From assembly GCA_040766985.1 (NCBI GenBank), contig JAXGPL010000006.1, forward strand, positions 70,284 to 134,283: DNA of 64,000 nucleotides, written 5' to 3'. Of the stretch, positions 4,767 through 55,046 are shown piece by piece. Numbering within the stretch: the stretch's first letter is position 1; each line of letters begins with the position of its first letter. Both the position numbers and the translations under genes were made by a program. The DNA is from Bacillota bacterium. GTDB taxonomy: Bacteria; Bacillota; Sulfobacillia; JAUYEG01. Under the pieces are notes generated by a model. It searched no databases and was not told the origin of the DNA. It saw only the letters and a list, made by a program, of their open reading frames with translations.

Positions 4767-4868
4767 GGAGACACCCCCTAGCCCGGTAGCTTGGCCAGGC
4801 GGGAGGAAACATATGCTCCGGCAGAGCTGTCAGAGAGAGTGCCGGGTCAGGCACAGAGCCAAGCCAGG

Positions 4869-5582: not shown

Positions 5583-5821
5583 ATTTTAGCCCGTAGATGA
5601 GTTGGCTATGGTGCATCCGTCATCGCTCCAGTGGTGGCGTATGTGGCACATTGCATCATCGCCGGCCCAGACTGACGACCAACGGTGCAGAATGCACCGT
5701 ACCGCTGCTATCCTAAGATGCATCTACCATCACACCGGGTCGTGCTATGGGTCAAAAACCACCATAGGCCGCCCAGTCCCTTCGGGCCGTCGATTTTCAC
5801 AAGACAGGGGAGGCAACGTCC

Positions 5822-6562: not shown

Positions 6563-6611
6563 GAGCAGGCAGAGAACGATATCATCGCCGAAAGTCAGGG
6601 GGACCCACGAC

Positions 6612-7523
6612 ATGAAACTCCACGGCATCATCCCGGCCATCGTACTGCCGATGACCGACGACGCGCGCATCGACGAGGGAGCCTTGCGGGGATACGTCGA
6701 GTGGCTGCTCGCCCAGGGCTGCCACGGGTTGGCCATCAACGTCGACACCGGCGAGGGGCCGCACCTGTGGCCGGAGGAAAAGGTCCAGGTAATCCACATC
6801 GTCAAGGATGTGGTCCGCGGGCGCGTGCCGATCATTGCGGGCCTCGGGGCCGCCTTCACGGAGCAGGCCGTCAAGGCCGCGCGCGATGCCGAGGCCGCCG
6901 GGGCGGACGGGCTTCTGGTGTTCCCGATTTCCGCGTGGCGGGGACGGCCGCTGCCGCCGGACCTGGTCTATAGCTACCACAAGGCGGTGGCGGACGCGGT
7001 TTCGATACCGCTCGTCGCGTTCCAGTTGCAGGACGCGCTCGGCGGGGTGGAGTTTGACCTGCCGACGTTAACCAGGCTGTTCGATATCCCGCAGGTCATC
7101 GGAATCAAGGAGGCCGCGTTTGACGCGAAGAAGTACCTGGAAGTCGTCCGCCACCTGCGCACCTTGCCGCGGGAGATCACCATTCTGACCGGCAACGACA
7201 ACTTCATCCTGGAGTCGTTTGTTCTTGGGGCGGACGGGGCGCTGATCGGCTTCGGCACGCTCGCAACCGCGATGCAGGTCGAGATGTACGACGCCTGGCG
7301 GGCGGGTGACCGGGAGCGGGCGTTTGATCTGGGCCGTAAGGTGCAGAAACTCGCCGACGTCATCTTCGCCCAACCCGTTCGGGACTACCGAGTGCGCACC
7401 AAAGAAGCCCTGGTTATGCAGGGAGTTATCCCTCGCGCGACAGTCCGCGCCCCGCTGATGGGCATCGATGACGCTGAGCGGGCCAAGGTGCGCGCAGCAC
7501 TCGCCGAAGCCGGGTTGGTGTAG
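6612..7523 (+). CDS. Dihydrodipicolinate synthase (DapA/NAL) family lyase
   Basis: 303-aa ORF: GIIPAIVLPMTDD, GLAINVDTGEG, IGIKEAAFD (Schiff-base lysine context). Confidence 0.85.
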   Translation: MKLHGIIPAIVLPMTDDARIDEGALRGYVEWLLAQGCHGLAINVDTGEGPHLWPEEKVQVIHIVKDVVRGRVPIIAGLGAAFTEQAVKAARDAEAAGADGLLVFPISAWRGRPLPPDLVYSYHKAVADAVSIPLVAFQLQDALGGVEFDLPTLTRLFDIPQVIGIKEAAFDAKKYLEVVRHLRTLPREITILTGNDNFILESFVLGADGALIGFGTLATAMQVEMYDAWRAGDRERAFDLGRKVQKLADVIFAQPVRDYRVRTKEALVMQGVIPRATVRAPLMGIDDAERAKVRAALAEAGLV

Positions 7524-32732: not shown

Positions 32733-33533
32733 ATGCCGGTCATCGAAGCGGTTGATCTCCGCAAAAGCTACGGTTCGCTCAAGGCGGTCGACGGCGTAAG
32801 CATCGCAGTCAGAGCCGGGCGAGCTATTCTGTTTTCTGGGCCCCAACGGCGCGAGACCACGACAATCAAGATGCTGATCGGCCTGATCAAGCCGATGGGC
32901 GGCCGGGTCCGCATCGATGGCCTGGATGTTCGGGTCGAACCGGTCAAGGCCAAGAGCAGGATCGGGTACGTCCCGATGCGGCGAACCCTCTACGATCGGC
33001 TCACTGCCAGGGAGTTTCTCGGCTTTGTCGCTGACATCTTCCGCCTGGGCAGGCAGGAACGTGCCGTGCGGATCGATTCCCTTCTCGAGCGGTTCGAGCT
33101 TACCGGCGACGCCGACCAGATGCTCGGTGGCTTCTCGCGTGGCATGCGCCAGAAGGTCACGATTGCTGCGGCGCTGCTTCACGATCCCAAGGCAATCTTC
33201 CTCGACGAGCCGACCGTGGGGCTCGACCCCAAGAGCGCCCGCACCCTCAAGGATCTGCTCCGGGGGTCGTGCGATCGCGGAGCCGCGGTATTCATGTCGA
33301 CCCATATCCTCGAAGTGGCCGAGACCATGGCCGACCGCGTTGGGATCATCCAAAAGGGCCAGATGCGTTTCCAGGGTACTGTGGCCGAACTTCGCGAGTA
33401 CGAGCACGGACCGGAGTCCGCGTCGCTTGAGGAGTTGTTCCTCCTGCTTACAGAAACCGGCAACGCCGTCGCCGGCCAGCCGGCCGCGGGGAGCGGCGGC
33501 CGCGGGCGGCCCGGCAGCCGGGAACGGAGCTGA
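32733..33533 (+). CDS. ABC transporter ATP-binding protein with a scrambled Walker A segment
   Basis: The ORF is intact, with signature FSRGMRQKV and Walker B IFLDEPTVGLD. The P-loop region reads VRAGRAILFSGPQRRETTTIKML, while the +1 frame over 32815-32858 reads ELFCFLGPNGA. Confidence 0.8.
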   Translation: MPVIEAVDLRKSYGSLKAVDGVSIAVRAGRAILFSGPQRRETTTIKMLIGLIKPMGGRVRIDGLDVRVEPVKAKSRIGYVPMRRTLYDRLTAREFLGFVADIFRLGRQERAVRIDSLLERFELTGDADQMLGGFSRGMRQKVTIAAALLHDPKAIFLDEPTVGLDPKSARTLKDLLRGSCDRGAAVFMSTHILEVAETMADRVGIIQKGQMRFQGTVAELREYEHGPESASLEELFLLLTETGNAVAGQPAAGSGGRGRPGSRERS

Positions 33534-33535
33534 CG

Positions 33536-35239
33536 ATGCGCGACTTTTGGCTTGTACTGCGGGCGCACGTGGGCGTCTCGTGGCGGAGGCTCGGAAGGGG
33601 TGGCCGGGCTGCGGGGCTGCTGCTTCTCGGCATCGGGTTGGTGGTCGGCTTCGCGGCGCTGCTGGCCCGGGGCACGGTCGTTATGCTGCGGGGCCTGCAC
33701 GATGTCCTTGCGGGCTACCCGGAGCTCGTCCCCGCCGTCGAAGGCAACCTGCTCTTGATGTGGTCCCTGTTTGTCGTCGCCATCGTGCTCAGTAACGCTT
33801 TGCACACCACCTATGCGACGCTTTATGGGTCCGATGACACCGGATTTCTTCTGGCGACGCCGCTCAGCACCAGGTCGGTGTTCGCGGCGCGCCTGACTGC
33901 CAGCATGGCCGGGTACGTCGCCGTCGCGGTGCCCACCTTCGGGCCGTTCGTCGCCTATGGCATGGCTTACGGCGCCGGCGCCCGGTACTACGTGACCGCG
34001 GCGCTGGCGTATTTCGGGTTTCTGGCTTTGATGGTCGCCGTGGCGGCGCTGTTTATCACGCTGGTCATGGCCTTCGTGCCGGGCGCCCGGCTGAAGCAGT
34101 GGTTGATGACCCTGGGTCTCCTGATCGGCTTGGCCATCGTCTTCGGTACGCAGTATGTGGCGGCGGGCGTGGATCGGCAAGGCGGGGTAGTGGCGCTGTT
34201 GCAGCGGATCGGCGGGTTCAATCTTGGCGGCATCCCCGTGCTTCCGCACGTGTGGCTGGCCCGGGCAACGCAGGCGGCAGTCGCAGGCGGTGGGCTGAAC
34301 TATGTCCTTGCGCTTCTAGGTCTCACGGCCCTCGCCGGTTTTGTGCTCGTGAACTACGCTTCACGCGTGTACACGGTTGGCTGGGCCGGTGGGCAGGAAG
34401 CCCAGCGCCGTCGCGTGCGGGCGCCACGACGGCGCAGCACAACCACTGCGGCCGCCAAGGGAAGATCGCCCCTGGCTTCGCCCTTCTGGGGGCTCGCCCG
34501 CAAGGACTTCCTGGCCAGCGCCAGGACACCGGTGTTGTGGTACCTGTTGCTTGTGGGCGCTGTGGTGGTTGCATTCCAGATCATCAACATGGTGCGGGCA
34601 AGATCGGGGCAGCCGGTGGACGAGGGCGTCAGGTTGTTGTTGTTGGGGTTCGTTCTGGGCGGTGCGAGCTTCTCGGGGTCTGTCCTTGCAGGGTCGGCGT
34701 TCAGCCGCGAAGGCGGCAACTTCGGGCTGGTGCAGTCGTGGCCGGTCCCGGCGACCACGGTGTTCCTCGGCAAGGTTGCCGCCGCGTTGCCTGTGCCGTT
34801 GGCAGCCAGCGTCGCGGGGCTGCTTGCTGTGTCACGGTTCACACCGGTGGCCTTCGCTCCGCTCTGGCGGTACCTGCCGGTTGTGGTCTTAAGCATTCTC
34901 TCAGTGCTGTCGCTGATGGCCTTGCTGGACACGTTCTTTCCCGATTTCTCCTACGAGAAGGGGTTCGAGCCAGGCAGCCGCGGCTCGGGGACGACTGTGA
35001 TCAAGACGCTAGTGTCCGTCTACGGTGGGATCGGCATCATCGTACTGATGATGGCGACCCTCAGCTTCGGCTTCACTTACGGGAGGTTCGGCTGGGCACA
35101 GTCGTTAACCCAGGGTCAAGCCGGTGCTTTGGCCTACGCGCTATTCGTGGCGGAGGCAGCTCTGTTTACGGTCGGCGCGGTGGCGCTGGGGTCGCGTCGG
35201 CTGGCCGCGCTCGCTCAGCGTGATGTGAGGCGGAGATAG
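33536..35239 (+). CDS. Large polytopic membrane protein, probable permease partner of the ABC ATPase
   Basis: Starts 3 nt after the ATPase stop. 567 aa with many hydrophobic segments. Resembles putative ABC-exporter membrane proteins (tentative). Confidence 0.65.
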   Translation: MRDFWLVLRAHVGVSWRRLGRGGRAAGLLLLGIGLVVGFAALLARGTVVMLRGLHDVLAGYPELVPAVEGNLLLMWSLFVVAIVLSNALHTTYATLYGSDDTGFLLATPLSTRSVFAARLTASMAGYVAVAVPTFGPFVAYGMAYGAGARYYVTAALAYFGFLALMVAVAALFITLVMAFVPGARLKQWLMTLGLLIGLAIVFGTQYVAAGVDRQGGVVALLQRIGGFNLGGIPVLPHVWLARATQAAVAGGGLNYVLALLGLTALAGFVLVNYASRVYTVGWAGGQEAQRRRVRAPRRRSTTTAAAKGRSPLASPFWGLARKDFLASARTPVLWYLLLVGAVVVAFQIINMVRARSGQPVDEGVRLLLLGFVLGGASFSGSVLAGSAFSREGGNFGLVQSWPVPATTVFLGKVAAALPVPLAASVAGLLAVSRFTPVAFAPLWRYLPVVVLSILSVLSLMALLDTFFPDFSYEKGFEPGSRGSGTTVIKTLVSVYGGIGIIVLMMATLSFGFTYGRFGWAQSLTQGQAGALAYALFVAEAALFTVGAVALGSRRLAALAQRDVRRR

Positions 35240-35654: not shown

Positions 35655-36137
35655 ATGGGTCGCCGCGACGAAATCACAAACCACCTTGTTCACTGGCAGG
35701 ACGTGTTGCGCCTGCGCGATTGGGACATCCGCCTGGAGATCGCCCCTGCGTCCTGGCGTAAGTCAGGCGACATCAAAATCGACCTTGAAGATCGCAAAGC
35801 GGTGATGATCATAAACGAGCGGCCCAGGACAGAGAACCTCGAGGAACTCGTCGTCCACGAACTCCTGCACGTCAAGCTGTATGCCATGGACCAGATGCTC
35901 ACCGAACTGCTCGGCACCGTCTTCGGCGAGGATCCTGACGATCCAAAGCGCGAATTCGCCTATACGCAGTTCATGGTGCTGCTGGAGTCGACCGTGGAAG
36001 ACCTCACCAAAGGCTATCTGGCTGCCGCAGGCACGGGCAACGACCTTTCCTTCGGCCGTATCCGGCGAGAAGTCACCGCGGAAATCGAGTCTGCCCGGAC
36101 AGTCGCCCCAGGCGACGCCGGCGGGTTAAGCAAGTAG
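35655..36137 (+). CDS. Hypothetical protein with an HExxH motif
   Basis: ATG at 35655, 5 nt after GGAGGGAG. ...LEELVVHELLHVKLYAMDQ... I recognise no family. Confidence 0.5.
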   Translation: MGRRDEITNHLVHWQDVLRLRDWDIRLEIAPASWRKSGDIKIDLEDRKAVMIINERPRTENLEELVVHELLHVKLYAMDQMLTELLGTVFGEDPDDPKREFAYTQFMVLLESTVEDLTKGYLAAAGTGNDLSFGRIRREVTAEIESARTVAPGDAGGLSK

Positions 36138-36348: not shown

Positions 36349-37128
36349 ATGTCCCTCTATGCAGGCAGGCTTTCGCATTTGCTGTTCTTCGCCGCGTTTT
36401 GTGTGGTCACTTACCTCGGCATGAAGCGGTTTCGCGAAACCGGCAAGGTGCCCATCCGCAGGGTCACTGGCCTCGATGCGTTCGAGGAGGCCATCGGCCG
36501 CGCAACCGAACTTGGCCGGCCCGTCCACTACACCCTCGGCCGGGGCCTTTTTGATGCCGAGCACGGCGCGCAGACGTTTGCCGGTTTTTCGATGCTCAAG
36601 CACACCGCCGCGACCGCGGCACGCTACGGCTGCAGACTGATTGTGACAAACCAGAGCCCGCAGGCCCACCCGGTCACAGAGGAGATCGTCCGCACGGCCT
36701 TCATCGAGGCCGGCCACGCGGACGCGTTCAACCCGGACGACATCCGGTACCTGAGCGAAACCCAAAACGCTTATGTGTCCGGCGTGATCGGGGTCATGGA
36801 GCGGGACAGAATCGCTGCCAACATCATGATCGGGTACTTTTACGCCGAGTCGATGATGCTCGCGGAAACCGCCAACAAGGTCGGCTCCATCCAGATCGCC
36901 GGCACCGCCAATACCCACCAGATCCCGTTCTTTGTGGCGGCTTGCGACTACACCCTCATCGGTGAGGAGATCTATGCCGCTTCGGCGTACCTCGAACGCC
37001 AGCCGGCGCAGATCGGCTCGCTGGTGGCCCAGGACTTCGGCAAGTTCCTGGCGGTCCTGTTCATTGTTCTGGGCACGCTTCTGGCTTCCGCAGGGCACTC
37101 GTTCCTGACCGATCTACTGAAGAAATAG
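36349..37128 (+). CDS. Unknown-function membrane operon copy A, subunit 1
   Basis: ATG at 36349, 6 nt after AAGGAGG. N- and C-terminal TM helices flank a soluble-looking core. Shares QIPFFVAACDYTLIGEE and G(L)(D/E)A(F/I)EEA(I/V)GRATE(L/M)G(R/K)PV with ORF 52058..52846. Confidence 0.7.
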   Translation: MSLYAGRLSHLLFFAAFCVVTYLGMKRFRETGKVPIRRVTGLDAFEEAIGRATELGRPVHYTLGRGLFDAEHGAQTFAGFSMLKHTAATAARYGCRLIVTNQSPQAHPVTEEIVRTAFIEAGHADAFNPDDIRYLSETQNAYVSGVIGVMERDRIAANIMIGYFYAESMMLAETANKVGSIQIAGTANTHQIPFFVAACDYTLIGEEIYAASAYLERQPAQIGSLVAQDFGKFLAVLFIVLGTLLASAGHSFLTDLLKK

Positions 37129-37141
37129 GGGGTGACTGGGG

Positions 37142-37777
37142 ATGAAACTTGTCGAGTGCCAATCTTTGTTTCGCTGGTCGTCGGCGTTGTCGTCGTGGCC
37201 GATTTCTTCATCAACCAGTCCGCCCTGGTTGCGACCTCGCGAGTTTATGAATTGGGGCGTGATCATCTCCGCCTTTGCCACGGGCCTCGGCGCTGCCAAC
37301 CTCCTGCGCATCCACGGTACCAGGACGCAGCAGCGCCGCGCCAACTGGCAGTACTCAATCGTGCTGCTGGTGGCGATGATCGGCTACACCGTGTTGGGCA
37401 TCGTCACCCGTAACACGTCTAAGCCGTACCTGTTCATCTTCGACAACATGTACAACCCGCTGGGAGCAACGGTGTTCTCGTTCAACGCGTTCTTCATGAC
37501 CTCTGCGGCGTACCGGGCGTTCCGCATCAAGACCGCCTCCGCGACGGTCCTGCTCATCGCCGCTCTCCTGGTGATGTTGGGCAACGTCGGGATCGGCGCC
37601 GTCATCTCGAAGCAGATACCGGAGATCGCGGGATGGATCTCGCGCGTGCCAACGACAGCCGGTTTCCGTGGGGTCACGATCGGAGCGGCCCTCGGCGCCA
37701 TCGGCCTCAGTCTCAGGATCATCCTCGGTATCGAAAGGTCGCACTTCGGCGGCACCGGCGGGGGTGGTAACGCATGA
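37142..37777 (+). CDS. Unknown-function membrane operon copy A, subunit 2 (compensated double frameshift near the N-terminus)
   Basis: The ORF is intact, but residues ~4-34 (VECQSLFRWSSALSSWPISSS...) are implausible. The other frame over ~37151-37240 reads RVPIFVSLVVGVVVVADFFINQSALVATS, which matches B2 (ELPIFLTGLTGLILIAHYYITIPIPFINR). From NWGVIISAF onward it is colinear with B2. Confidence 0.65.
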   Translation: MKLVECQSLFRWSSALSSWPISSSTSPPWLRPREFMNWGVIISAFATGLGAANLLRIHGTRTQQRRANWQYSIVLLVAMIGYTVLGIVTRNTSKPYLFIFDNMYNPLGATVFSFNAFFMTSAAYRAFRIKTASATVLLIAALLVMLGNVGIGAVISKQIPEIAGWISRVPTTAGFRGVTIGAALGAIGLSLRIILGIERSHFGGTGGGGNA

Positions 37778-38610
37778 ACTTCTGGGTTGGGGTGCAGAAC
37801 GTCGACCGGCGTATCTGGTACCTATTGCTGACCGTCTCGCTGTTCATCCCGTTGATCATGCCGTTGGGACTCCCGCTACAGGTCAGCCAGGAGGCCCAAA
37901 CGGTCTATGACACAATCGAGGCCCTGCCCGAAGGGGCGATCGTGATCGTCTCACCGAGCTATAGCCCCGGTACCGACGCGGAGAACTGGCCGCAGCACGC
38001 GGCGATCATCCAGCACCTGATCGCCAAGAAAGCCAAGGTGGTTCAGGTCTCGTTGGTCCTTGAGTCGGTGATGTATGCCACCCGCGCGCGTGAAGTGTAT
38101 TTCGACACGCTTGGCTACGTATATGGGACCGACCATGTGATCATGCCGTACAAGGCCGGCAGCGACGTCGCGATTGCGTCGATGGGCCGCGACTTCAAGG
38201 CCCTTTACACGGAGGACTACCTCGGGACCGCGGCCGACGATCTGCCGCTGATGAACCAGATCACGAGCATCCACGACATCGCCCTAATCGTCGACTTCAT
38301 GCCCGGCAACACTCTCGTGGACTATATCAAACAGATCGAGGGCACCTACAACATCCCCGTGACCGGGGGCGTGACAGGTGTCTGCATCCCCACGATGATG
38401 CCCTATGTGATGTCAGGCCAGTGTCGCGGCCTGCTGGGCGGGATGCGCGGCGCGGCTGAATACGAACTGCTGATCAAGTCGCCCGGCAAGGCGATCGGTG
38501 GTATGGACGCCCAGTCGCTGTCGCACCTGCTGATCATTTTCGCCATCGCTCTCGGCAACCTGGGCTACATCATCACGCGTGGCCATGGGAGAGGGGGCGC
38601 TGCGAAGTGA
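37774..38610 (+). CDS. Unknown-function membrane operon copy A, subunit 3
   Basis: ATGA overlap with subunit 2. N-terminal and C-terminal TM helices around a ~220-aa domain. Shares RG(A/G)AEYELL.K.PG......MDAQS..HLL with ORF 53510..54346. Confidence 0.7.
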   Translation: MNFWVGVQNVDRRIWYLLLTVSLFIPLIMPLGLPLQVSQEAQTVYDTIEALPEGAIVIVSPSYSPGTDAENWPQHAAIIQHLIAKKAKVVQVSLVLESVMYATRAREVYFDTLGYVYGTDHVIMPYKAGSDVAIASMGRDFKALYTEDYLGTAADDLPLMNQITSIHDIALIVDFMPGNTLVDYIKQIEGTYNIPVTGGVTGVCIPTMMPYVMSGQCRGLLGGMRGAAEYELLIKSPGKAIGGMDAQSLSHLLIIFAIALGNLGYIITRGHGRGGAAK

Positions 38611-39206
38611 GCACCGATCTCGGCGTCTGGATCGCCGCAGGGTGTACGATCTTCATGTACAGCTACCTGATTGGCGACAACCCGCTGTTCAAATTTGCCG
38701 AGCACCTTTACATCGGTATCTCGGCGGCGCACGCCGTCGTGCTCGGTTACCAGAACATTCAGGAGATGGCCTGGAAACCCCTCATCGACGGCAAGTGGAT
38801 CATGGTCATACCACTCGTCCTCGGGCTTTTGCTGTACACCCGGTTCGTCAAGGACTGGTCGAGTCTTTCGCGGATCCCGATTGCCTTCCTGACGGGCCTG
38901 GCTGCGGCGCTGTCCATCCGCGGCGCCCTTGACGCGTCCTTCATCAAGCAGGTGGCCGCGACGATGGTGCCGATCACCAACGTGAACGTTCTTCTGACAA
39001 TGGTCATGGTTGCGACGACGATCACCTACTTCTTCTTCACCGCAGGGTCGCAACTCGCTCCCGTTCAATTCAGCGCCCAGGTGGGCCGATGGGTCATGAT
39101 GGTTGCTTTCGGCTCCGCCTTCGGCAACACCGTCATGGCACGAATGTCGCTGGTCATCGGCAGGCTGCAGTTCCTGTTTGGGACCTGGATCAAGCTCATT
39201 AAGTAG
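38607..39206 (+). CDS. Unknown-function membrane operon copy A, subunit 4
   Basis: GTGA overlap with subunit 3. Polytopic. MSTDLGVWIAAGCTIFMYSYL...FAEHLYIGISAA parallels MSTNPGIWVASILTIFVYSYL...LTEHLYVGVAAG at 54349. Confidence 0.7.
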   Translation: MSTDLGVWIAAGCTIFMYSYLIGDNPLFKFAEHLYIGISAAHAVVLGYQNIQEMAWKPLIDGKWIMVIPLVLGLLLYTRFVKDWSSLSRIPIAFLTGLAAALSIRGALDASFIKQVAATMVPITNVNVLLTMVMVATTITYFFFTAGSQLAPVQFSAQVGRWVMMVAFGSAFGNTVMARMSLVIGRLQFLFGTWIKLIK

Positions 39207-39227
39207 GTAAGAGGGGCTCTGAGTATT

Positions 39228-39257
39228 GAGGCCCGGCGTCCAAGCACGCCGGGCCTC
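39228..39257 (+). terminator. Strong hairpin after operon copy A (no clear U-tract)
   Basis: GAGGCCCGGCG-TCCAAGCA-CGCCGGGCCTC, a perfect 11-bp stem. Confidence 0.4.
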
Positions 39258-39285
39258 AGTCCAGCCCTGGAGTGCGCGAAGCGGG

Positions 39286-39648
39286 GTGGTTCAGGTGTTC
39301 GAGTCGTTCAGCCACGCCTTTGAAGGTATCGTCCACGCGGTCAGGACCGAGACGAACATCCGCATCCAGTTGGCCGCCCTGGCCGCGGTCCTCGGGGCTG
39401 CGGCATGGTGCCGGGTGACACCTGTCGAGCTGGCGCTGCTGCTGCTCTCTTCCGGGTGTGTCATCGCGCTCGAACTGGTGAACACGGCCCTGGAAACCGT
39501 TGTCAACCTCGTCACCGAGGAGTACAGCGAGCGTGCCAAGCTGGCCAAGGACGTCGCCGCCGGGGCGGTGCTCGTGATGGCCGGCGTCTCTGTGCTGGTG
39601 GGCCTGGCCATTGTGCTCCCTCGCGCGGCGAGGGGGTTGGGTTTCTAG
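39286..39648 (+). CDS. dgkA: Diacylglycerol/undecaprenol kinase (DgkA family)
   Basis: GTG at 39286, in frame in ORF 39226..39648. FSHAFEGIVHAVRTETNIRIQL, IALELVNTALETVVNLV, AKDVAAGAVL. Confidence 0.8.
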   Translation: MVQVFESFSHAFEGIVHAVRTETNIRIQLAALAAVLGAAAWCRVTPVELALLLLSSGCVIALELVNTALETVVNLVTEEYSERAKLAKDVAAGAVLVMAGVSVLVGLAIVLPRAARGLGF

Positions 39649-41659: not shown

Positions 41660-43759
41660 CTATCCGCCGGTGTCCGCCTGCCAGTCGCTTCGCACGCCAC
41701 CCCTCAGGTGCGTCGGGCCGAGGTCCCTGTCAAACCAGGCGTCGGTGGGGTCGTGGTGGAATACGCCGTTGGCGACATAGCCGGCGCCCCATGTAGCGTC
41801 AACTGAAACCCAGCGCCCACCGTCCCTGAACTCGTTCCAGGCGTGGTTCTGGTTATCGGCAAAGGTTACGCCCGTGGCGACACGGCACTCAATGCCGAGT
41901 GTCCTGCACATGGCGGCAAACACGTTGGCGTAATCTTCGCAAACCCCTCTGCCGCGGGCGATGATTTCCAGCGACGTAAGCTGCCCTTCCGTGGGATCCG
42001 CCGCACGTACCAGGTCGTAGGTCAGGTGCCGTGCGACCCACCTGTAGATGGCCTTCGCCTTGCCGTAAGCTGTCTTTTCTCCAGCCGTCGCAGTTGCCGC
42101 GAGGTCGTGGACGGCGGCGCTACCCGACTGGATGTAGACCCCGGGGGCCGCCCATTCGTCCGGCGATGGGCTAACGCTGTCCGCCCGAAAGGCCGCATCG
42201 GTCAGCAGGTACCTGGACTCCTCGCCGCTGTCGAGGCACAGCCGTATCTCGTATCGGCCGGGGCCGTGCGTGAGCCAGATGCGGCCGCTGAAGTATCCGT
42301 TTCTGACCGGCAGGTGGTGCAATGCCAACTCATGGCCGTAAGTCAGCTGGACGTGCACGCGTTCTCCCGGGGCGAATCCGGCGATGTCGACGAATCCTTC
42401 CGCCTCCACCAGGTCGGCTCGCGGCCACGTAAAGCCGGCGTCGTATCGCGGATCGTTGACAAGCGCCAGCATGTTCTTGACGCGGAAACCGAGGTCCTCA
42501 TAGTAGTAGTCGCCCTTGCCGGGAACCGGTGTCATGAACTGCAGGTAGTAGTCGCCTCGTCCCGCGGCGAAATAAAAGCGCTGGTCGAAGCTGCCTCCCA
42601 TCACCGCGACCGGCGTCCAGGGCGTGCCGATGTGGTCGCGGATCATCAGTTCAGGCTGGGTGGTCGTGCCCTTGACATGCAGGATTCCGTCGACCTCGCC
42701 GCCGTCCGCCCGCGGGAGGAACAGCCGCACCTTGGCCGATGAGAGAGCGCCGGGTGAGCAATAGCGCGAAGCGTGCGCCGCGTCCAGGTCCAGGATGTCC
42801 TGCCACCAGGCATTGGCTTCGAGAGCCAAGGGCCCCGGCCGGTCGCTGTGATAGCCAAGGTAGCCCTCCGGGCACCAGGGCCTGGTGCCCGATGCCACCA
42901 CAATCGCCGCCTCGTCGGACCCGGGCAACAGGAGGACGTCGACCGTCCGGCCGACCAGCGGTTCGATCGTGCCATCACCGCACACGTAGGGGTCGGCAAG
43001 GGAAAGAAACTGCCCGCCGACCGTCAACCTCCCGTCACCGGCGGTCTGGAGCAACCCGCGCTGGAACCCAAAGCGCTCGTCGAGCAAAGTCCCGCAAGAG
43101 CCGGCTTGGTCGATCGGTACGGTCGGGGCCTGTGCCGAGAGGTGGGCGATGCCGGCGCGGTCCAGTCCGACGTTGCCGTACCCGGTGAGCCGCCCGGAGA
43201 GGCCGATGCGTTCACCCAATTCAAGATACGACTCGGGCCACGCGCGGGCCGGGTCGAGTTCGTCCTCCCGTCCAAGGAGCCGCGACAACATCGCCAGGCC
43301 TTCCGCAAGCAGAACACCCTGGTCGGGGCGGAATGTCCCGTCCTCAAAGCCGCGGATCAGGCCGTGCGCCTTCGCCGCGTTGACGTAGCCCAATGCCCAG
43401 GCCGGAATCCGGTCAGCGTCCGCGAAGGCCGGGCGTGCCTCCGACTCCGCCCCGCCATCCGCCGCGATTCCCTTGAGGCGAAGGACAAGCGCTGCGAATT
43501 CGGCACGCGTCAGGCTGTCCCCGGGCCTGACCTTACCGCCGAGACCCGAGTCGCCCTGTATCAGGCGCAGTGCGCCGAGCAGGTCGAAATCCGCTCCACA
43601 CCGGCCGTCGGTGTCGCTGAATGCGGCGGCGAGGGCGACCGGGGCCGCGGCCCACGCAGGGGCGGGCACATGGCCCACCCCTGCGGCGAGGGTGGTAAGG
43701 GCCATGATGACCGCGATCAGCGCATGGTGGCGATGGTGTCCTAGTGGGTGCAATGGCAT
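41660..43759 (-). CDS. SLH-domain surface protein with a C-terminal transglutaminase-like cysteine protease core
   Basis: Internal ATG at 43759 (MPLHPLGHHRHHALIAVIMALTTLAAG...). SLH-like repeats (FADADRIPAWALGYVNAAKAHGLIRGFEDGTFRPD). RGRGVCEDYANVFAAMCRTLGIECRV...NHAWNEF...VDATWG. Confidence 0.8.
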   Translation of the reverse strand: MPLHPLGHHRHHALIAVIMALTTLAAGVGHVPAPAWAAAPVALAAAFSDTDGRCGADFDLLGALRLIQGDSGLGGKVRPGDSLTRAEFAALVLRLKGIAADGGAESEARPAFADADRIPAWALGYVNAAKAHGLIRGFEDGTFRPDQGVLLAEGLAMLSRLLGREDELDPARAWPESYLELGERIGLSGRLTGYGNVGLDRAGIAHLSAQAPTVPIDQAGSCGTLLDERFGFQRGLLQTAGDGRLTVGGQFLSLADPYVCGDGTIEPLVGRTVDVLLLPGSDEAAIVVASGTRPWCPEGYLGYHSDRPGPLALEANAWWQDILDLDAAHASRYCSPGALSSAKVRLFLPRADGGEVDGILHVKGTTTQPELMIRDHIGTPWTPVAVMGGSFDQRFYFAAGRGDYYLQFMTPVPGKGDYYYEDLGFRVKNMLALVNDPRYDAGFTWPRADLVEAEGFVDIAGFAPGERVHVQLTYGHELALHHLPVRNGYFSGRIWLTHGPGRYEIRLCLDSGEESRYLLTDAAFRADSVSPSPDEWAAPGVYIQSGSAAVHDLAATATAGEKTAYGKAKAIYRWVARHLTYDLVRAADPTEGQLTSLEIIARGRGVCEDYANVFAAMCRTLGIECRVATGVTFADNQNHAWNEFRDGGRWVSVDATWGAGYVANGVFHHDPTDAWFDRDLGPTHLRGGVRSDWQADTGG

Positions 43760-44008
43760 CTCCGTTGTGGGTGATCGCTGGTTTCGTAGGGGATGTGATT
43801 TCACACCTGCCCCGCGGATGCCTGCCGGCAGGACAGCCATGGAAGAAAATGGACCGCGGGCCTATTCACGGAATAGGCGCGGCCTGCGTGACCGTGTGCA
43901 CGACTGTCCGCGCGGCTGAGTGCGTGGCCGTTGCCTCCCACCGAACCAGCTGGAGGCAGTCATGGCAGGCGCCGCCGAAGAAGCACACCAATCCGGGGGG
44001 TGACCGCG

Positions 44009-45993: not shown

Positions 45994-48354
45994 ATGATCA
46001 CCAACCGTGTGGCCAGACTCCGGCAGCAGAGCCTTGACGCCCAGCCCCGCATCTCGACGGAGCGGGCGGAGTTGCTGACGGAGTTTGACCGGACCTGCCG
46101 TGAAACCGCTGTGCCGGTGCGCCGCGCGCTGGCCTTCCAATACATTCTTGAGCACAAAGCCATCGCGATTGGGCCAGGCGAACTGATCGTCGGCGAACGC
46201 GGCCCGTCTCCGAAAGCTACTCCCACCTATCCCGAGCTGTGCTGCCACAGCCTGGCCGACCTCGACCTCCTCGACAGCAGGCCCAAGATCCCGTTCCGGG
46301 TCGACGAGAGGTCGCGACGGGTGTACGAGGAGAGCATCATTCCCTATTGGCAGGGCCGTTCGATACGCGACATGCTGTTCGCGGCGATGAGCCCGGAGTG
46401 GGTTGCAGCATATGACGCCGGGATGTTCACGGAGTTCATGGAGCAGCGGGCGCCGGGGCATACGGTCTGCGGCGACAAGATCTACCGCAAGGGTTTCCTT
46501 GATATCAAACGGGACGTTGAATCACACCTTGCCCGCCTCGACTACCTCCGAGACCCCATGGCATACGACAAGCGCCTTGAACTCAGGGCGATGCGGATCT
46601 GCTGTGACGCGATCATCGCTTACGCGGCCAGGCACGCCGGACTGGCCCGCGAACTAGCCGCCTCGGAGGCCGACGCGACCAGGCAGGCTGAATTGCTGAA
46701 GATCGCTGAGGTCTGCGGGCATGTGCCCGCGGAGGCCCCCAGGGATTTTTGGGAGGCCCTGCAGGCGTATTGGTTTGTGCACCTCGGCGTGATTACCGAG
46801 CTGAACACGTGGGACTCGTTTTGCCCAGGGCGTCTTGACCAGCACCTTGAGCCGTTCTACCGGCAGGGCCTGGAGCAGGGCTCCCTGACGCGGGAGCAGG
46901 CCGAGGAGTTGCTGCAGTGTTTTTGGGTCAAGTTCAACAACCAGCCCGCGCCCCCCAAGGTCGGAGTCACCGCAGCCGAGTCGGGCACGTATACCGACTT
47001 TGCCAACATCAACAGCGGCGGCCTCCGCGCCGACGGGACCGACGGCGTCAACGAGGTCACATACCTTGTGCTGGACGTGATCGACCAGATGCGGTTACTG
47101 CAGCCGAGTTCGAACATCCAGGTCAGCAAGAAGAGCCCAGACGCCTTCGTCCGCCGTGCCGCCCGCATCATCCGCAAGGGTTGGGGTCAGCCCTCGGTCT
47201 TCAACGCGGACGCGGTGGTTGCCGAACTGCTAAGGCAGGGCAAGAGCCTCGAAGACGCCAGGATGGGCGGCACGAGCGGGTGTGTCGAAACTGGCGCCTT
47301 CGGCAAGGAAAGCTACATCCTGACCGGATATCTCAATCTCCCCAAGATCTTCGAACTCACCCTCAGCCGGGGCGTCGATCCGCGCACAGGACGCCGGCTC
47401 GGACCCGATACCGGCGACGCCGCGTCATTCACGGGGTTTGAGCAACTGTGGGCCGCTTACCGCAGGCAACTCGACCACATGGTCGAGGTAAAGATCGCCG
47501 GCAGCAACATCATCGAACGCCTTTACGCGCAACACATGCCCGCGCCGTTCCTTTCGCTCGTGATCGACGACTGCGTGACCAACGGCCGCGACTACAATGC
47601 GGGCGGAGCTCGGTACGATACGAGCTACATTCAGGGCGTCGGCATCGGTACACTGACCGACTCGCTGGCGGCCATCAAGCACCTCGTTTACGAGAGCGGC
47701 GTCCTGACGATGGCGCAGTTGCTTGGAGCCCTGAGCGCAGACTTCGAGGGCTCGGAGGACGTCAGGCAGTACCTCGTCAACCGGGCACCCAAGTACGGCA
47801 ACGACGACGACCGGGCCGACGAACTGATGCGCATGGCCTTTGACGCTTTCTACGAGACCGTCAACGGCAGGCCTAACACGCGCGGCGGGACTTACCGCAT
47901 CAACATGTTGCCGACGACGTGCCACGTCTACTTTGGCTCCGTAACCGGCGCAACCCCCGACGGTCGCCGCGGCGGCCTGCCGCTGTCGGAGGGCATCTCC
48001 CCGGTCCAGGGGGCGGACCGCAAAGGGCCGACAGCTGTCATCCAGTCCTGCGCCAAGATGGATCACCTCCGCACCGGCGGAACGTTGCTGAACATGAAGT
48101 TTACGCCGTCGGTGCTGGAAGGGGAGAAGGGGCTCGACAACCTCGTGCACCTCATCCGCGCCTACTTCAAGCTGGACGGCCACCATGTGCAGTTCAACGT
48201 CGTCGATGCCGAGACGCTCCGGGCCGCTCAGCGCGAGCCGGAGAAGCACCGCGACCTGATTGTGCGCGTGGCGGGGTACAGCGACTTCTTCTGCGACCTA
48301 AGCCCTGCCCTGCAGGATGAGATCATCGCCAGGACGGCGCACACCACCGCCTAA
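45994..48354 (+). CDS. Glycyl radical enzyme, PFL2/eliminase class (substrate unknown)
   Basis: 786 aa, intact. Cys loop GGTSGCVETGAFG (TGT GTC GAA at 47281-47289). Glycyl-radical motif LIVRVAGYSDFF near the C-terminus. Confidence 0.9.
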   Translation: MITNRVARLRQQSLDAQPRISTERAELLTEFDRTCRETAVPVRRALAFQYILEHKAIAIGPGELIVGERGPSPKATPTYPELCCHSLADLDLLDSRPKIPFRVDERSRRVYEESIIPYWQGRSIRDMLFAAMSPEWVAAYDAGMFTEFMEQRAPGHTVCGDKIYRKGFLDIKRDVESHLARLDYLRDPMAYDKRLELRAMRICCDAIIAYAARHAGLARELAASEADATRQAELLKIAEVCGHVPAEAPRDFWEALQAYWFVHLGVITELNTWDSFCPGRLDQHLEPFYRQGLEQGSLTREQAEELLQCFWVKFNNQPAPPKVGVTAAESGTYTDFANINSGGLRADGTDGVNEVTYLVLDVIDQMRLLQPSSNIQVSKKSPDAFVRRAARIIRKGWGQPSVFNADAVVAELLRQGKSLEDARMGGTSGCVETGAFGKESYILTGYLNLPKIFELTLSRGVDPRTGRRLGPDTGDAASFTGFEQLWAAYRRQLDHMVEVKIAGSNIIERLYAQHMPAPFLSLVIDDCVTNGRDYNAGGARYDTSYIQGVGIGTLTDSLAAIKHLVYESGVLTMAQLLGALSADFEGSEDVRQYLVNRAPKYGNDDDRADELMRMAFDAFYETVNGRPNTRGGTYRINMLPTTCHVYFGSVTGATPDGRRGGLPLSEGISPVQGADRKGPTAVIQSCAKMDHLRTGGTLLNMKFTPSVLEGEKGLDNLVHLIRAYFKLDGHHVQFNVVDAETLRAAQREPEKHRDLIVRVAGYSDFFCDLSPALQDEIIARTAHTTA

Positions 48355-48640: not shown

Positions 48641-48800
48641 TCCCCGCCAAGAGGGCTGCAACGATAGACCCTCCTCACATTGAGCCGTTCTGGCAGGCCT
48701 GGCCAAGGGGTGGACGGCCCTGCGGCCCGGCAGGGAACGACGACGCCGGCTGAGAATCGCTCGTCAAGATTAGGACCGCCCCGCGACAGAGGGCGGCGGC

Positions 48801-48911
48801 CACCGGCGAGGGGTTCCTGGCGACCGGGTGGCTGCCGGGCACCGGCGAGGGGTTCCTGGCGACCGGGTGGCTGCCGGGCACCGGCGAGGGGTCGACCCGG
48901 CACCGGCGAGG
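48801..48911. repeat. 39-bp tandem repeat, 2 full copies plus partial copies
   Basis: CACCGGCGAGGGGTTCCTGGCGACCGGGTGGCTGCCGGG at 48801-48839 and 48840-48878, then CACCGGCGAGGGGT (48879-48892) and CACCGGCGAGG (48901-48911). Confidence 0.9.
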
Positions 48912-52057: not shown

Positions 52058-52846
52058 ATGGAGGTGCAAGACAACTTGATTGCAGGACGGATTGCTGGAT
52101 TCTGGGCTCTTCTAGTCTCATTCGTACTGATGCTTCTGGCAGTCAGTAACGCCAAGAAGAGACTGCCCAAGATCCGGACGCTTGCTGGCCTGGAGGCGAT
52201 CGAAGAGGCGGTTGGCCGCGCGACCGAGATGGGCAAACCGGTGATGTTCACCCCGGGCTATGGGGACGTCGCCGGAACCAACGCAGCGCCCACGATCGCC
52301 GGACTCGATATGCTTGGCTATGTCGGGCGCCTAGCCGCCAGGCGCGATACCAAAATGGCAGTGACCGTGGGCCACCCCAATACATACACCGTTGCGCTGG
52401 ACGTTCTGAGGCGCGCATATATGGTTGAGGGCCGTCCCGATGCTCTGCCGGACGACGCTGTCACCTTTGGCTCCGAGATTCAGTTCGCGTTTACGGCTCA
52501 CACTCTCGGGCGTATCCAGCGGGAGAAGCCGGCAACCTGCCTGTTCCTCGGTTACTTCGCTGCGGAAGCGATCATCGTTGCTGAGGCAGCGGTAGCCGCC
52601 GGGTCAATCTCAATCGCTGGGGCGACAAACCACTTCCAGTTGCCGTTCTTTGTCGCCGCCTGCGACTACACCCTGATTGGAGAGGAATTCCTTGCGGCCG
52701 GCGCTTACGTGTCAAACGATCCGCGCCGCATTGGTTCAATCGCCGGTCAGGATTGGATCAAGGGCATTGCGGTCTTGATAGTAATCGCCGGGGTGGTCAT
52801 GCGGGCAACGGGCAACAACGCTATGACCACATGGCTCAGCAAATAG
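52058..52846 (+). CDS. Unknown-function membrane operon copy B, subunit 1
   Basis: 262 aa. TM-core-TM layout. LAGLEAIEEAVGRATEMGKPVMF and QLPFFVAACDYTLIGEE match copy A subunit 1. Confidence 0.7.
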   Translation: MEVQDNLIAGRIAGFWALLVSFVLMLLAVSNAKKRLPKIRTLAGLEAIEEAVGRATEMGKPVMFTPGYGDVAGTNAAPTIAGLDMLGYVGRLAARRDTKMAVTVGHPNTYTVALDVLRRAYMVEGRPDALPDDAVTFGSEIQFAFTAHTLGRIQREKPATCLFLGYFAAEAIIVAEAAVAAGSISIAGATNHFQLPFFVAACDYTLIGEEFLAAGAYVSNDPRRIGSIAGQDWIKGIAVLIVIAGVVMRATGNNAMTTWLSK

Positions 52847-52873
52847 GGCCGGCGGGAGAGGAGGGCGCGAACT

Positions 52874-53503
52874 ATGAAACGTGAGCTTCCCATATTCCTG
52901 ACAGGTCTGACCGGCCTGATCCTGATTGCGCACTACTACATCACCATTCCGATACCGTTCATCAACCGGCTCGCCGAGGCCATGCCGAACTGGGGTGTCA
53001 TCATTGCTGCCTTCACGCTGGCCTTGGCTGCTGCCAACCTGATCAAGATCCACCTGACACGGCTGATCCGTGGTGGCGGTATTGGCAGGGTCCTGCCCAG
53101 TGTGGTGCTCCTGGCGGGTCTGTTTGTGACGGCCATTTCGGGCATCTTCCTTGGGCAGAGTTCCACCTCGTTCAACTTCATCTTCACCAATATGTACACG
53201 CCCCTGGCTGCGGCCTTCTACGCGATGACGGCGTTTCACCTGGCTTCTGCATCATACCGGGCCTTCCGAGCGCGTACAGCTCAAGCTGCTGTGCTCCTCG
53301 TCACGGGTGTCCTTCTGATGCTGGGCCGGGCGCCCATCGGTGAGGCGGTCTGGGCCCAGTTCCCGACAATCGCTAACTGGATTATGAACGTCGGTAACCT
53401 GGCGGGGTCACGTGGAATCATGATTAGCATTGCCGTTGGTGTAATCGGTGTGAGCTTGCGGGTTCTCGTGGGCATCGACCGGGCACACCTGGGCGCGGAA
53501 TAG
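52874..53503 (+). CDS. Unknown-function membrane operon copy B, subunit 2
   Basis: AGGAGGG RBS 8 nt upstream. Polytopic. MPNWGVIIAAF, FIFTNMYTPL and ASASYRAFRARTA parallel the A2 motifs. Confidence 0.7.
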   Translation: MKRELPIFLTGLTGLILIAHYYITIPIPFINRLAEAMPNWGVIIAAFTLALAAANLIKIHLTRLIRGGGIGRVLPSVVLLAGLFVTAISGIFLGQSSTSFNFIFTNMYTPLAAAFYAMTAFHLASASYRAFRARTAQAAVLLVTGVLLMLGRAPIGEAVWAQFPTIANWIMNVGNLAGSRGIMISIAVGVIGVSLRVLVGIDRAHLGAE

Positions 53504-53509
53504 GGGGTC

Positions 53510-54346
53510 GTGCAGATGAGTCTGATTGAACGGCTCGGCCGCGTCGACAACCGGGTGATTTATGCGCTCTTGATAGTTGTACTGATTTGGCCGCTGGCAA
53601 AGCCACTCGGTCTTCCAGTTTCGGTCGGTGTCTATACCCAGAAGTCCTACGAGACTATCGATGCCCTTCAGGCCGGGGATGTGGTTCTCTTCTGTTCCGG
53701 CTACTCGGTATCAGGTGCCGGCGACGTCCAGGCTCAAGCCATTGCCATCTCGCGTCACCTGTTTGGGAAAGACGTCAAGGTCATCTTCTACTCGGATGTC
53801 GTCGAGGGGCCGATGGTGATCGAGAACGTTTTGACCAACATCCCGGAGATCCAGGGCAAGACCTACGGCGTCGACTGGGTCAACCTCGGTTACCTTGCCG
53901 GTGGAGAGATGGCCCACACCGCGGCCGCTAAGGGGCTTAAAGAGGCCTATCCGCTCGATTTCAAGGGCGATCCGACAGACACGCTTCCGATTCTTGAGAA
54001 CGTCAACACCGCCGGCGATGTAGCCCTGACGGTCTTCTTCACCACCCAGAACTCGGACATGTTCGTTCGTCAGATTACGCCTTACGGCAAACCAGTCATC
54101 GGCGGACTGATCAACACAATTGTTCCGCAGGCTGAGCCGTACGTGAACTCCGGACAGCTCACCAGCATCCTGGCCGGTCTGCGTGGCGGCGCTGAGTATG
54201 AGTTGTTGATGAAGCAGCCCGGCGTCGGTTTGGCGGCCATGGATGCCCAGAGCATGGGTCACCTGCTGTTTATCCTGTTTATCGGATTGGCCAATGTCGC
54301 CTACTTCTCGACACGCGGCAGGGCTGCTCGAAAGGTGGGTGGTTAG
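53510..54346 (+). CDS. Unknown-function membrane operon copy B, subunit 3
   Basis: 278 aa, the same length as A3. LRGGAEYELLMKQPGVGLAAMDAQSMGHLLFILFIGLANVAYF parallels A3. Confidence 0.7.
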   Translation: MQMSLIERLGRVDNRVIYALLIVVLIWPLAKPLGLPVSVGVYTQKSYETIDALQAGDVVLFCSGYSVSGAGDVQAQAIAISRHLFGKDVKVIFYSDVVEGPMVIENVLTNIPEIQGKTYGVDWVNLGYLAGGEMAHTAAAKGLKEAYPLDFKGDPTDTLPILENVNTAGDVALTVFFTTQNSDMFVRQITPYGKPVIGGLINTIVPQAEPYVNSGQLTSILAGLRGGAEYELLMKQPGVGLAAMDAQSMGHLLFILFIGLANVAYFSTRGRAARKVGG

Positions 54347-54348
54347 CT

Positions 54349-55046
54349 GTGTCCACCAATCCAGGGATTTGGGTTGCGTCGATCCTGACGATATTCGTCT
54401 ACTCCTATCTATTTAAGGAGAACCTGTTCTATCAACTGACCGAGCACCTCTATGTAGGCGTGGCCGCCGGGTACACGGTGACGATCGCGTGGACCAACAT
54501 CAAGTCAGCGGTTTGGCAGCCGTTGTCGGCCAAGGGCGATTACCTGGTACTTGTACCGGCAATCCTTGGCCTACTGCTCTTCGCACCGTTCGTTTCCCCG
54601 TCGCTCAAGTGGGTCAAGCGCATCCCGATTGCCGTTATCATCGGTATCGGCACTGCGCTCACTTTGCGGACCACGGTAATATCCAGTTCTTAGCCCAGCT
54701 AAAGGCGTCAATCATGACACTTAATAGTGTTGACAACGTGATTGTCGTGATCGGTACGCTGGCGACTTTGAGCTACTTCTTCTTTACCTACAAGCAGAAC
54801 CCGGTATTGCATGCCTCCTCCGAAATCGGCAAGTGGGTGATCATGGTCACCTTCGGCGCCGCGTTCGGCAGCGGCATCATGGGCCGGTTGTCGCTCCTGA
54901 TCGACCGGATCCTGCTGGTCTTCCGCGACTGGCTACCGCTGATACAAAGTAGCGTCGGCGCACCTTGGATGGAGCGCGTGGTCCGCGGCGGACAAACCGC
55001 CGCGGACCCGCCGTTATCCCCGCAGGGGATGGAGCAGATACCATGA
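54349..55046 (+). CDS. Unknown-function membrane operon copy B, subunit 4; frameshifted near 54674-54678
   Basis: GTG at 54349. The first frame stops at 54691-54693 after LTLRTTVISSS. The frame of ORF 54489..55046 continues NIQFLAQLKASIMTLNSVDN...GKWVIMVTFGAAFGSGIMGRLSLLIDRILLVF, colinear with A4. Confidence 0.65.

Follow-up and report, generated by a model that had tools for sequence, protein, structure and literature searches.

What does a set of four tightly packed genes for membrane proteins encode when it stands twice in one genome and belongs to no familiar system? The question is raised by a 64,000-nt stretch of DNA from a Bacillota bacterium (hereafter the window), in which copy A (36349-39206) and copy B (52058-54952) are the two four-gene sets that we compared. 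A reading made from the letters of the window (the sequence-only reading) had drawn attention to copy A, could place none of its four products in a named transporter, respiratory or secretion family, and had suggested a stoichiometric membrane complex. Our analysis indicates that the module probably encodes an undescribed membrane machine. The four-gene unit is self-contained and strongly conserved.

Conservation of the four-gene module

Species-representative genomes of GTDB were scanned for relatives of subunit 3 (the product of the third gene), which gave at least 586 loci. The best 80 of these at least 586 loci were analysed, and their synteny was established by tblastn with all eight proteins of the window. 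The four genes lie on one strand in the order 1-2-3-4 in 80 of the 80 loci, sets being incomplete only at contig ends. These loci span more than ten phyla or lineages, including Nitrospira/Nitrospirota, Zixibacteria, WOR-3, Ignavibacteria, Binatia, Stahlbacteria, Latescibacterota, Poribacteria, Calditrichota, Cloacimonadota, Elusimicrobia and Bacillota. Loci that were anchored on subunit 1 instead, from a metagenome-assembled genome (MAG) of Chloroflexota and from a MAG labelled archaeon, hold the same four genes in the same order. The co-occurrence of the four families, on which the proposal of a complex had been made to depend, is thus conserved in other genomes. The genes are closely spaced throughout the family (median intergenic gaps of 4.5, 6.5 and 6 nt, with many 4-nt overlaps), and the unit is probably co-translated. 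No gene outside the four was found to be conserved in all lineages among the 80 loci, which argues that the module is self-contained.

One complete set is present in 60 of the 80 loci. Multiplied sets or genes take several forms, namely tandem double sets (L018 and L030), three sets (L074), two sets with an extra subunit 1 (L023), two divergently oriented sets about 3 kb apart (L042) and a doubled subunit 1 (L083 and L084). The closest named relative, a Bacillota MAG at 75% identity, has two copies, as does the window (two in the close relative L085). The families are large. An exhaustive HMMER search of 1.84 billion representatives returned 5,475 relatives of subunit 3 (clusters at 50% identity) at E ≤ 0.001, and DUF6754, the family of subunit 1, comprises more than 7,800 clusters at 90% identity. 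With hundreds to thousands of homologues for each subunit, chance open reading frames (ORFs) of GC-rich DNA are ruled out. The mean column identity across the four families is 42-59%, indicating strong purifying selection on each of them. The module was found on no viral contig or plasmid, and PADLOC gave no match at E ≤ 0.01 for any subunit, nor for the MutL and barrel-sandwich accessory proteins described below; a mobile, phage or defence origin was therefore rejected.

Within the window the set does recur gene for gene and in the same order, as the sequence-only reading had it, and all four subunits are pairwise homologous. Identity is 39% between A1 and B1 (E 1e-59), 46% between A2 and B2 (E 1e-39), 39% between A3 and B3 (E 1e-57) and about 36-40% between A4 and B4, the gene-by-gene E-values of all pairs ranging from 1e-59 to 1e-36. 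The motif blocks quoted earlier as shared by the two copies are found in these alignments, and they are also the most conserved blocks of each family. Copies A and B are as distant from one another as either is from orthologues in other phyla. By this measure the two copies in the window are old, diverged paralogues, and, on the analogy of paralogous transporters, each may have a specificity of its own.

Family identity and predicted anatomy of the subunits

Profile searches with all eight proteins gave a single family above cut-off. Subunit 1 is a full-length DUF6754 (PF20539) protein in both copies, with 288 bits for A1 and 263.9 bits for B1 against a gathering score of 27, the matches spanning positions 9-255 of the 257 in the profile; 54 of 54 aligned subunit 1 homologues match the same entry. 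The earlier statement that none of the four can be placed in a named family therefore stands for subunits 2-4 and has to be amended for subunit 1, although the name comes without a function. The Pfam entry covers one protein and omits subunits 2-4 as partners, the topology and the operon. For subunits 2, 3 and 4, no match above cut-off was found with either copy in Pfam or NCBIfam, or with the members of the family alignments searched individually in Pfam. The homologues of subunit 3 have no Pfam domain and are nearly all unnamed or called 'hypothetical protein'. The same is true of the 353 homologues of subunit 4 (0 with a Pfam domain), one of which carries the JGI label 'lipoprotein signal peptidase'. 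Profile searches of PDB sequences had no match below E 0.2 for any of the four families, and for subunits 2 and 4 there was none even at E 10. The AlphaFold2 models of subunits 1 and 3 were compared by Foldseek with 350,542 PDB chains; 0 matches reached the threshold of E ≤ 0.001, and TM-scores were 0.37 or less. The best scores (0.2-0.37) were to assorted Rossmann-like proteins (TtuA, shikimate dehydrogenase, RCK domains, SIS-domain MurQ/MurR and Sir2), the best match of subunit 1 being the SIS-domain enzyme MurQ (TM-score of 0.35 or less, not significant). The view that the family is unrecognised is upheld to the extent that Pfam, NCBIfam, PADLOC and PDB gave no match of any subunit to a characterised family, whether of transport, respiration, secretion or defence.

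A few weaker similarities deserve description. Sub-threshold matches to IF-2B/MtnA occur in 17 of the 54 subunit 1 members (best about 1e-4), over one 34-residue beta-alpha-beta stretch. A1 scores 21.9 bits with IF-2B (PF01008; cut-off 22.4) over residues 173-206 only and 25 bits with TIGR00524 (cut-off 186), B1 has no IF-2B match, and MtnA is the top PDB sequence match of the subunit 1 profile (E 0.2, not significant). This stretch of 30-35 residues (ET/GxxxG..QIAGTAN..IPFFVAA) and the Rossmann-like alpha/beta fold constitute the likeness of subunit 1 to the family of eIF2B alpha/beta/delta, MtnA and ribose-1,5-bisphosphate isomerase (RBPI). The stretch is, however, short and below cut-off, Foldseek ranks other folds first for subunit 1, and subunit 1 is membrane-anchored at both ends, whereas IF-2B proteins are not. 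No match to the IF-2B/MtnA/RBPI entries (PF01008, TIGR00524, TIGR00512) covers the whole Rossmann-like domain. For subunit 2, TMD0_ABC appears under its 27-bit cut-off in 12 of 39 members (best E 1.9e-4). The top PDB match of subunit 3 is the Bug/TctC binding protein BugE (2dvz; E 0.21 over 44 residues, not significant), and NCBIfam gave stray matches to MrpG (18.4 bits vs 151), NuoB (15.7 vs 263) and NuoJ (12.4 vs 319).

The TRAP (DctPQM) and TTT (TctABC) transporters, and more broadly uptake that depends on a binding protein, offer a working analogy. They combine an extracytoplasmic alpha/beta domain, as in subunit 3, with polytopic subunits, there is no ABC ATPase in the operon, and several paralogous copies occur per genome. 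Yet the module has no sequence or fold similarity to them, and Pfam and NCBIfam gave no match to the DctP, Bug, DctQ/DctM or TctB/TctA families. The outer domain of subunit 3 is tethered by transmembrane (TM) helices at both ends, the membrane subunits (6+6 TM) are unrelated to DctQM/TctAB, and the module has an extra conserved subunit with a cytoplasmic domain. Nor is it an ABC transporter by its genes, with no ATPase ORF in either operon and no recognised family of ABC transmembrane domains. The subunits matched no OAD_beta, Rnf/Nqr or Mrp/complex I membrane subunit above cut-off in Pfam and NCBIfam, and no glycosyltransferase, Wzx/Wzy, MurJ or polyprenyl-phosphate family domain in Pfam. In the library of papers searched, none mentions DUF6754, PF20539 or PF13941, and none of relevance was found on MutL with glutamate mutase and Nitrospira or on GlmL. 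Given these failed assignments, the lack of a fold neighbour in PDB and the silence of the literature, we rate the module as a new kind of system and not a variant of a known one, as judged by sequence profiles and PDB folds. We know of no family with a 2+6+2+6 TM layout and soluble domains on both membrane faces.

Alignment-based AlphaFold2 models were confident for A1 (predicted local distance difference test, pLDDT, 90.9; predicted TM-score, pTM, 0.83) and for subunit 3 (pLDDT 92.4, pTM 0.86). In both, a TM helix is followed by an alpha/beta domain of five or six beta-alpha units and a long TM helix, in agreement with the layout of TM segment, soluble core and TM segment that the sequence-only reading had assigned to subunits 1 and 3. 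Its description of subunits 2 and 4 as polytopic also agrees with our topology prediction (about six TM each). Its further remark that all four are strongly hydrophobic holds for the latter pair; subunits 1 and 3 are mostly soluble alpha/beta proteins between two TM helices.

Topology was predicted from family-averaged hydropathy and the positive-inside rule. Subunit 1 is predicted to be N-out with a cytoplasmic Rossmann-like domain, because a basic R/K-rich stretch (...KVPxIRK...) comes just after TM1. Subunit 3 is predicted to be N-in with its alpha/beta domain outside, because DRR precedes TM1 and the C-tail is basic. Independent support for the outside location comes from the subunit 3 homologue P0436, in which CARDB repeats, of extracellular type and above the Pfam cut-off, are inserted in the outer domain. 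Large insertions in this domain fall at one hot spot (profile positions ~100-115). Helical inserts were seen in P0505, P0484 and P0493, and in P0432 the entire domain is duplicated in tandem, joined by acidic linkers. Subunit 2 is predicted to have six TM helices, N-in/C-in, with a cytoplasmic loop, SAAYRAFRxR, that is invariant in the family; LGIER is its C-terminal motif. Subunit 4, with the motifs DNPxYKxAEH and FGAxFGYTVMARxSLLIGR, is best read as having about six TM helices, N-out/C-out. Subunit 4 of Nitrospira and Binatia (L020, L024, L029, L031, L044, L052, L059 and L064) is about 50 residues longer than in the window, with an extra C-terminal TM helix and a basic tail; this seventh helix and basic tail in the Nitrospira proteins fit the N-out/C-out orientation.

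Several positions within or adjoining TM helices are conserved as polar or charged residues, namely E32/H33 of subunit 4, R177 of subunit 2, and Q247, H251 and N262 of subunit 3, the Q/H/N set being conserved within the C-terminal TM helix of that subunit. Subunit 1 is the most conserved of the four (59% mean column identity across phyla), with R51, E54, R152, E167, E173, Q191, D200 and E207 invariant and C199 near-invariant. When the families were compared by hhalign, subunits 1 and 3 matched weakly and in register (probability 10%, E 0.003, columns 41-130 vs 39-123). No relationship was detected between subunits 2 and 4 (probability 1%) or between the other pairs of families.

A proposed transporter-like complex and its alternatives

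In the reading that we favour, the four subunits of each copy make up a self-contained complex in the cytoplasmic membrane that would work as a transporter-like machine; we give this reading a probability of about one in two, assembly included. From the invariant order, the overlapping genes and the duplication of the set as a unit, we infer that the four products form one complex, which would move or transmit something across the cytoplasmic membrane. The unit encodes about 16 predicted TM helices and one soluble domain for each membrane face. The core, of about 12 helices, would consist of subunits 2 (6 TM, N-in) and 4 (6 TM, N-out); subunits 1 and 3 would contribute a further two TM helices apiece, and a Rossmann-like alpha/beta domain each. 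Of these domains, that of subunit 1, which is very conserved, would face the cytoplasm, and the more variable, insertion-tolerant one of subunit 3 would face outward. A substrate might then be bound or passed on by the outer domain and take a path through subunits 2 and 4, by way of R177 of subunit 2, Q247/H251/N262 of subunit 3 and E32/H33 of subunit 4. Inside the cell, the domain of subunit 1 could take over the substrate, bind a ligand that is phosphorylated or a nucleotide, or serve as docking site for soluble partners. Candidate partners, encoded in the same operon in Nitrospira, Binatia and several other phyla, are a MutL/GlmL-type ASKHA ATPase and a barrel-sandwich protein. A transporter-like role is suggested by the outward, variable and insertion-tolerant domain, the polytopic core with polar residues, the frequent paralogous expansion (several paralogous copies per genome being typical of transporters) and the optional ATPase partner.

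The genes of these putative partners lie directly upstream of the module on the same strand in other phyla, in a tightly packed set that encodes a small protein, the ATPase (PF13941, E 6e-125) and a 372-aa (amino acid) protein. MutL and the 372-aa protein were found together in 22-26 of the 80 loci, from Nitrospirota, Binatia, Latescibacterota, Poribacteria, Zixibacteria and Elusimicrobia (for example L024:3492-6792, L029:5156-8119, L044:4619-8018 and L008:1614-2732). The 372-aa protein has weak RnfC_N/NqrA_N/biotin-lipoyl-like barrel-sandwich matches in 21 of 22 members and a KOW-like C-terminus; its consensus has no biotinylation (MKM-type) motif. It resembles Na+-NQR and Rnf components (NqrA and the N-terminal domain of RnfC) in its weakly recognisable barrel-sandwich hybrid, and NqrA also in being without evident cofactor motifs. 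The resemblance ends there, as the accessory is absent from the window, the four core subunits are unlike the Rnf/Nqr membrane subunits, and no flavin or Fe-S motifs were seen.

Several points weigh against the transporter-like assignment. The topology of all subunits is predicted from hydropathy and charge bias only, and the four-subunit assembly, like a 1:1:1:1 stoichiometry, is deduced from synteny, any substrate being hypothetical. The predicted outside C-tail of subunit 4 is rather basic. The conservation of the subunit 1 domain (59%) would be no less fitting for an enzyme than for an accessory of a transporter. Searches with Pfam, NCBIfam, PDB profiles and Foldseek revealed no likeness in sequence or fold to known transporters. 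No MutL or barrel-sandwich homologue is encoded in the window, and neither operon of the window includes an ATPase or other energy-coupling gene.

A more specific architecture, to which we attach a low probability, is that of an antiparallel pseudo-dimer, with subunits 1 and 2 as one half and subunits 3 and 4 as the other, powered in many phyla by the MutL/GlmL-type ATPase. The predicted orientations are opposite within both pairs (subunit 1 N-out vs subunit 3 N-in, and subunit 2 N-in vs subunit 4 N-out), and the order of secondary structures in subunits 1 and 3 is near-superimposable. Such a machine would present equivalent Rossmann-like domains on both membrane faces, and an actin/Hsp70-fold ATPase would act as its motor instead of one of the ABC, P-type or V/F-type. 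If true, powering by an actin/Hsp70 fold would be an unprecedented way to energise transport or trans-membrane coupling.

The neighbouring genes lend themselves to two other explanations, both of which we hold to be unlikely. The module might be an envelope-glycoconjugate machine that flips, polymerises or modifies a lipid-linked or sugar-phosphate precursor; subunit 1 would bind a sugar phosphate or sugar nucleotide with its cytoplasmic domain, and subunit 3 would act on the product outside. A GMPPB/GlmU-like NTP_transferase adjoins the module in 15 of the 80 loci, of the FCB group, and also in L084 and L092 (the MAG labelled archaeon, where it stands downstream with GlmS). A dgkA gene follows copy A in the window, and PIG-L, SpoIID and FtsW/SpoVE lie near the copies in L085. 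The same explanation draws on the IF-2B/MtnA likeness of 17 of 54 DUF6754 members (a sugar-phosphate-binding fold), on MtnA as top insignificant PDB match and on MurQ as best Foldseek match of subunit 1. All of these similarities are sub-threshold, however (21.9 vs 22.4 bits over 34 residues for IF-2B, E 0.2 for MtnA, TM-score of 0.35 or less), the NTP_transferase link is confined to FCB-group lineages and one other locus, and the glycosyltransferase, Wzx/Wzy, MurJ and polyprenyl-phosphate domains sought in Pfam were not detected. The organisms with the module moreover have different envelopes, as they include monoderms, diderms and one represented by a MAG labelled archaeon. With similarly slender odds, the core could instead move H+ or Na+, driven by or driving a soluble enzyme on subunit 1 that varies by lineage: the MutL-type ATPase with the barrel-sandwich protein, or a biotin-dependent carboxyltransferase. 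Genes for a biotin-carrier protein (BCCP) and an OadA-like carboxyltransferase (HMGL-like plus PYC_OADA) lie directly upstream of the module on the same strand in L092 (5804-7803 and 11046-14085 take in these genes and the downstream NTP_transferase and GlmS). The barrel-sandwich matches of the 372-aa accessory and the invariant E, H, Q, N and R residues in TM segments are in keeping with ion coupling. Yet the OadA/BCCP neighbourhood was seen in this single locus, the accessory consensus is without the MKM-type motif, and no soluble partner gene stands beside either operon of the window. The subunits themselves have no similarity to OAD-beta, Rnf, Nqr, Mrp or complex I, the scores with MrpG, NuoB and NuoJ being 12-18 bits against cut-offs of 140-320.

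That the module is instead a highly diverged member of a characterised transporter or complex family, missed by sequence-profile and PDB-only fold searches, seems to us improbable. Small helical membrane proteins are hard to classify, the fold comparison covered PDB only and the family comparison was made by sequence profiles, and one may point to the weak TMD0_ABC matches in 12 of 39 subunit 2 members and to Bug/TctC 2dvz as top insignificant PDB match of subunit 3. Against this, every match falls under its curated cut-off and none is consistent across subunits, the PDB profile searches of subunits 2 and 4 are empty even at E 10, TM-scores do not exceed 0.37 for either confident model, and the TM layout matches no family that we know of. 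Least probable, to our mind, is that there is no complex, the four being independent, co-travelling membrane proteins or spurious ORFs. The assembly is indeed deduced from genes, and the long homologues of subunit 3 that were inspected showed no fusion of one subunit with another, only insertions or duplications inside the outer domain. But the same order in 80 of 80 loci across phyla, the overlapping stop and start codons, the duplication of the whole set as a unit and the strong purifying selection on each family all speak against it.

The transporter-like complex, or whichever machine the module encodes, would be of wide consequence. Three of the four proteins have no family name and none has a structural or functional relative in the databases searched, while the module is very conserved, its four genes have stayed together as one indivisible unit, and it often occurs in multiple copies. 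Membrane complexes that have several subunits and are conserved usually play a central part in transport, in energy conversion or in building the envelope; a further one would fill a gap in the physiology of many uncultivated lineages. It would do the same for the nitrite oxidiser Nitrospira, which is of importance in wastewater treatment and the nitrogen cycle. The facultative association with MutL/GlmL-type ATPases would give that poorly understood family a new context. As subunit boundaries, corrected sequences, predicted topology, conserved residues and candidate partners are now defined, the question has become directly testable.

The two copies in the window and their surroundings

The features of the two copies are collected in the table below. 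The four packed ORFs of copy A that the sequence-only reading described are present at the coordinates it gave, and the overlaps it noted are seen in the sequence (ATGA at 37774-37777 in gcATGAac between A2 and A3; GTGA at 38607-38610 in aaGTGAgc between A3 and A4). So are the flanking elements: upstream, an ORF with an HExxH motif (HELLH; 35655-36137, 160 aa, without a Pfam match), and downstream, a hairpin followed by dgkA (DAGK_prokar, E 4.5e-31).

Features of copies A and B in the window
Feature	Coordinates	Strand	Remarks
A1 (copy A subunit 1)	36349..37128	+	259 aa; DUF6754, PF20539 E 6.8e-86
A2 (copy A subunit 2)	37142..37777	+	true length 212 aa; polytopic, ~6 TM; 46% identity with B2
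A3 (copy A subunit 3)	37774..38610	+	278 aa; GAAEYE and MDAQS..H motifs
A4 (copy A subunit 4)	38607..39206	+	199 aa; polytopic, ~6 TM
GC-rich 14-bp hairpin after copy A	39225..39258	+	fold of -47 kcal/mol for 39195-39295, z-score -3.55
B1 (copy B subunit 1)	52058..52846	+	262 aa; DUF6754, PF20539 E 1.5e-78
B2 (copy B subunit 2)	52874..53503	+	209 aa; same protein in three other assemblies
B3 (copy B subunit 3)	53510..54346	+	278 aa from GTG at 53510
B4 (copy B subunit 4)	54349..54952	+	intact 201 aa in sister assemblies; split in window

A GGAGG ribosome-binding site lies 7 nt 5' of the ATG of A1. The hairpin is a possible operon terminator; no U-tract follows it. Promoter and terminator scans of the window gave no signal above background, and an Rfam scan of the window gave no match. 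The start of B3 is called at ATG 53516 in sister assemblies (gene call in L089), which makes the protein 276 aa long.

Independent assemblies of the same organism, about 99.7% identical to the window, served as reference for errors in the sequence. Compared with L001 and L003, the window lacks a G near 37154 and GA near 37241 in A2. These two compensating indels put about 30 N-terminal residues out of frame; in the sister assemblies A2 starts MKLVGVPIFVSLVVGVVVVADFF..., which amounts to an extra first TM helix. In B4, one C is missing near 54683 and one near 54946 (vs L089 and L090), and the gene is consequently split into the ORFs 54349-54693 and 54489-55046, with a false C-terminal tail. In L089 and L090 it is intact and ends ...DWLPLIPK. 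By this comparison, the frameshift of B4 and the odd N-terminus of A2 are indel errors of this assembly. A pseudogene or a programmed frameshift is ruled out for B4, as the sister gene is intact and the window is short of single Cs in short runs. The second set had earlier been placed at 52058-55046; it is present, but its true end is that of B4 at 54952. Similar indel errors may affect other genes of the window (at least four small differences were seen at 37150-37245 and 54680-54950).

The genes around the two copies are not conserved with the module, even in the relative at 75% identity. This applies to the ABC-type pair at 32733-35239, a separate unit upstream of copy A, to the HExxH ORF and dgkA, and to the amidase, S9 peptidase and UbiE-type methyltransferase of the window. 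A universal neighbour that would reveal function was sought and none emerged, the MutL set, the Memo-like gene, the NTP_transferase and OadA/BCCP all being lineage-limited; a Memo-like gene, for instance, is near the module in 17 loci, all of the Nitrospira lineage. In Zixibacteria, Ignavibacteria and Calditrichota, the NTP_transferase is a GMPPB/eIF2B-epsilon-like protein with an LbH domain, encoded 3' of subunit 4. Loci with an NTP_transferase downstream of subunit 4 are L007, L009, L011-L013, L017, L026, L036, L040, L049, L056, L079 and L084. An eIF2B-epsilon-like neighbour is curious, given that subunit 1 weakly resembles the eIF2B-alpha/MtnA fold.

Elsewhere in the window, a near-perfect tandem repeat of 19 bp x 7.1 copies (GCTGGTTGGCTACTGTGCT) occupies 5446-5582, between the ORFs 4791-5399 and 5602-6615. 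Another, of 39 bp x 2.5 copies with 98% matches, lies at 48797-48892 upstream of the amidase gene and is shared by the sister assembly L089. At 17965-19515, 26394-28922, 41660-43840 and 45994-48354 the window encodes two proteins with SLH domains, one of which has a transglutaminase core, as well as a LonC-like protease and a glycyl-radical enzyme that resembles pyruvate formate-lyase. These genes fit an anaerobic organism of Bacillota type with an S-layer, which agrees with the Bacillota labels of the closest homologues.

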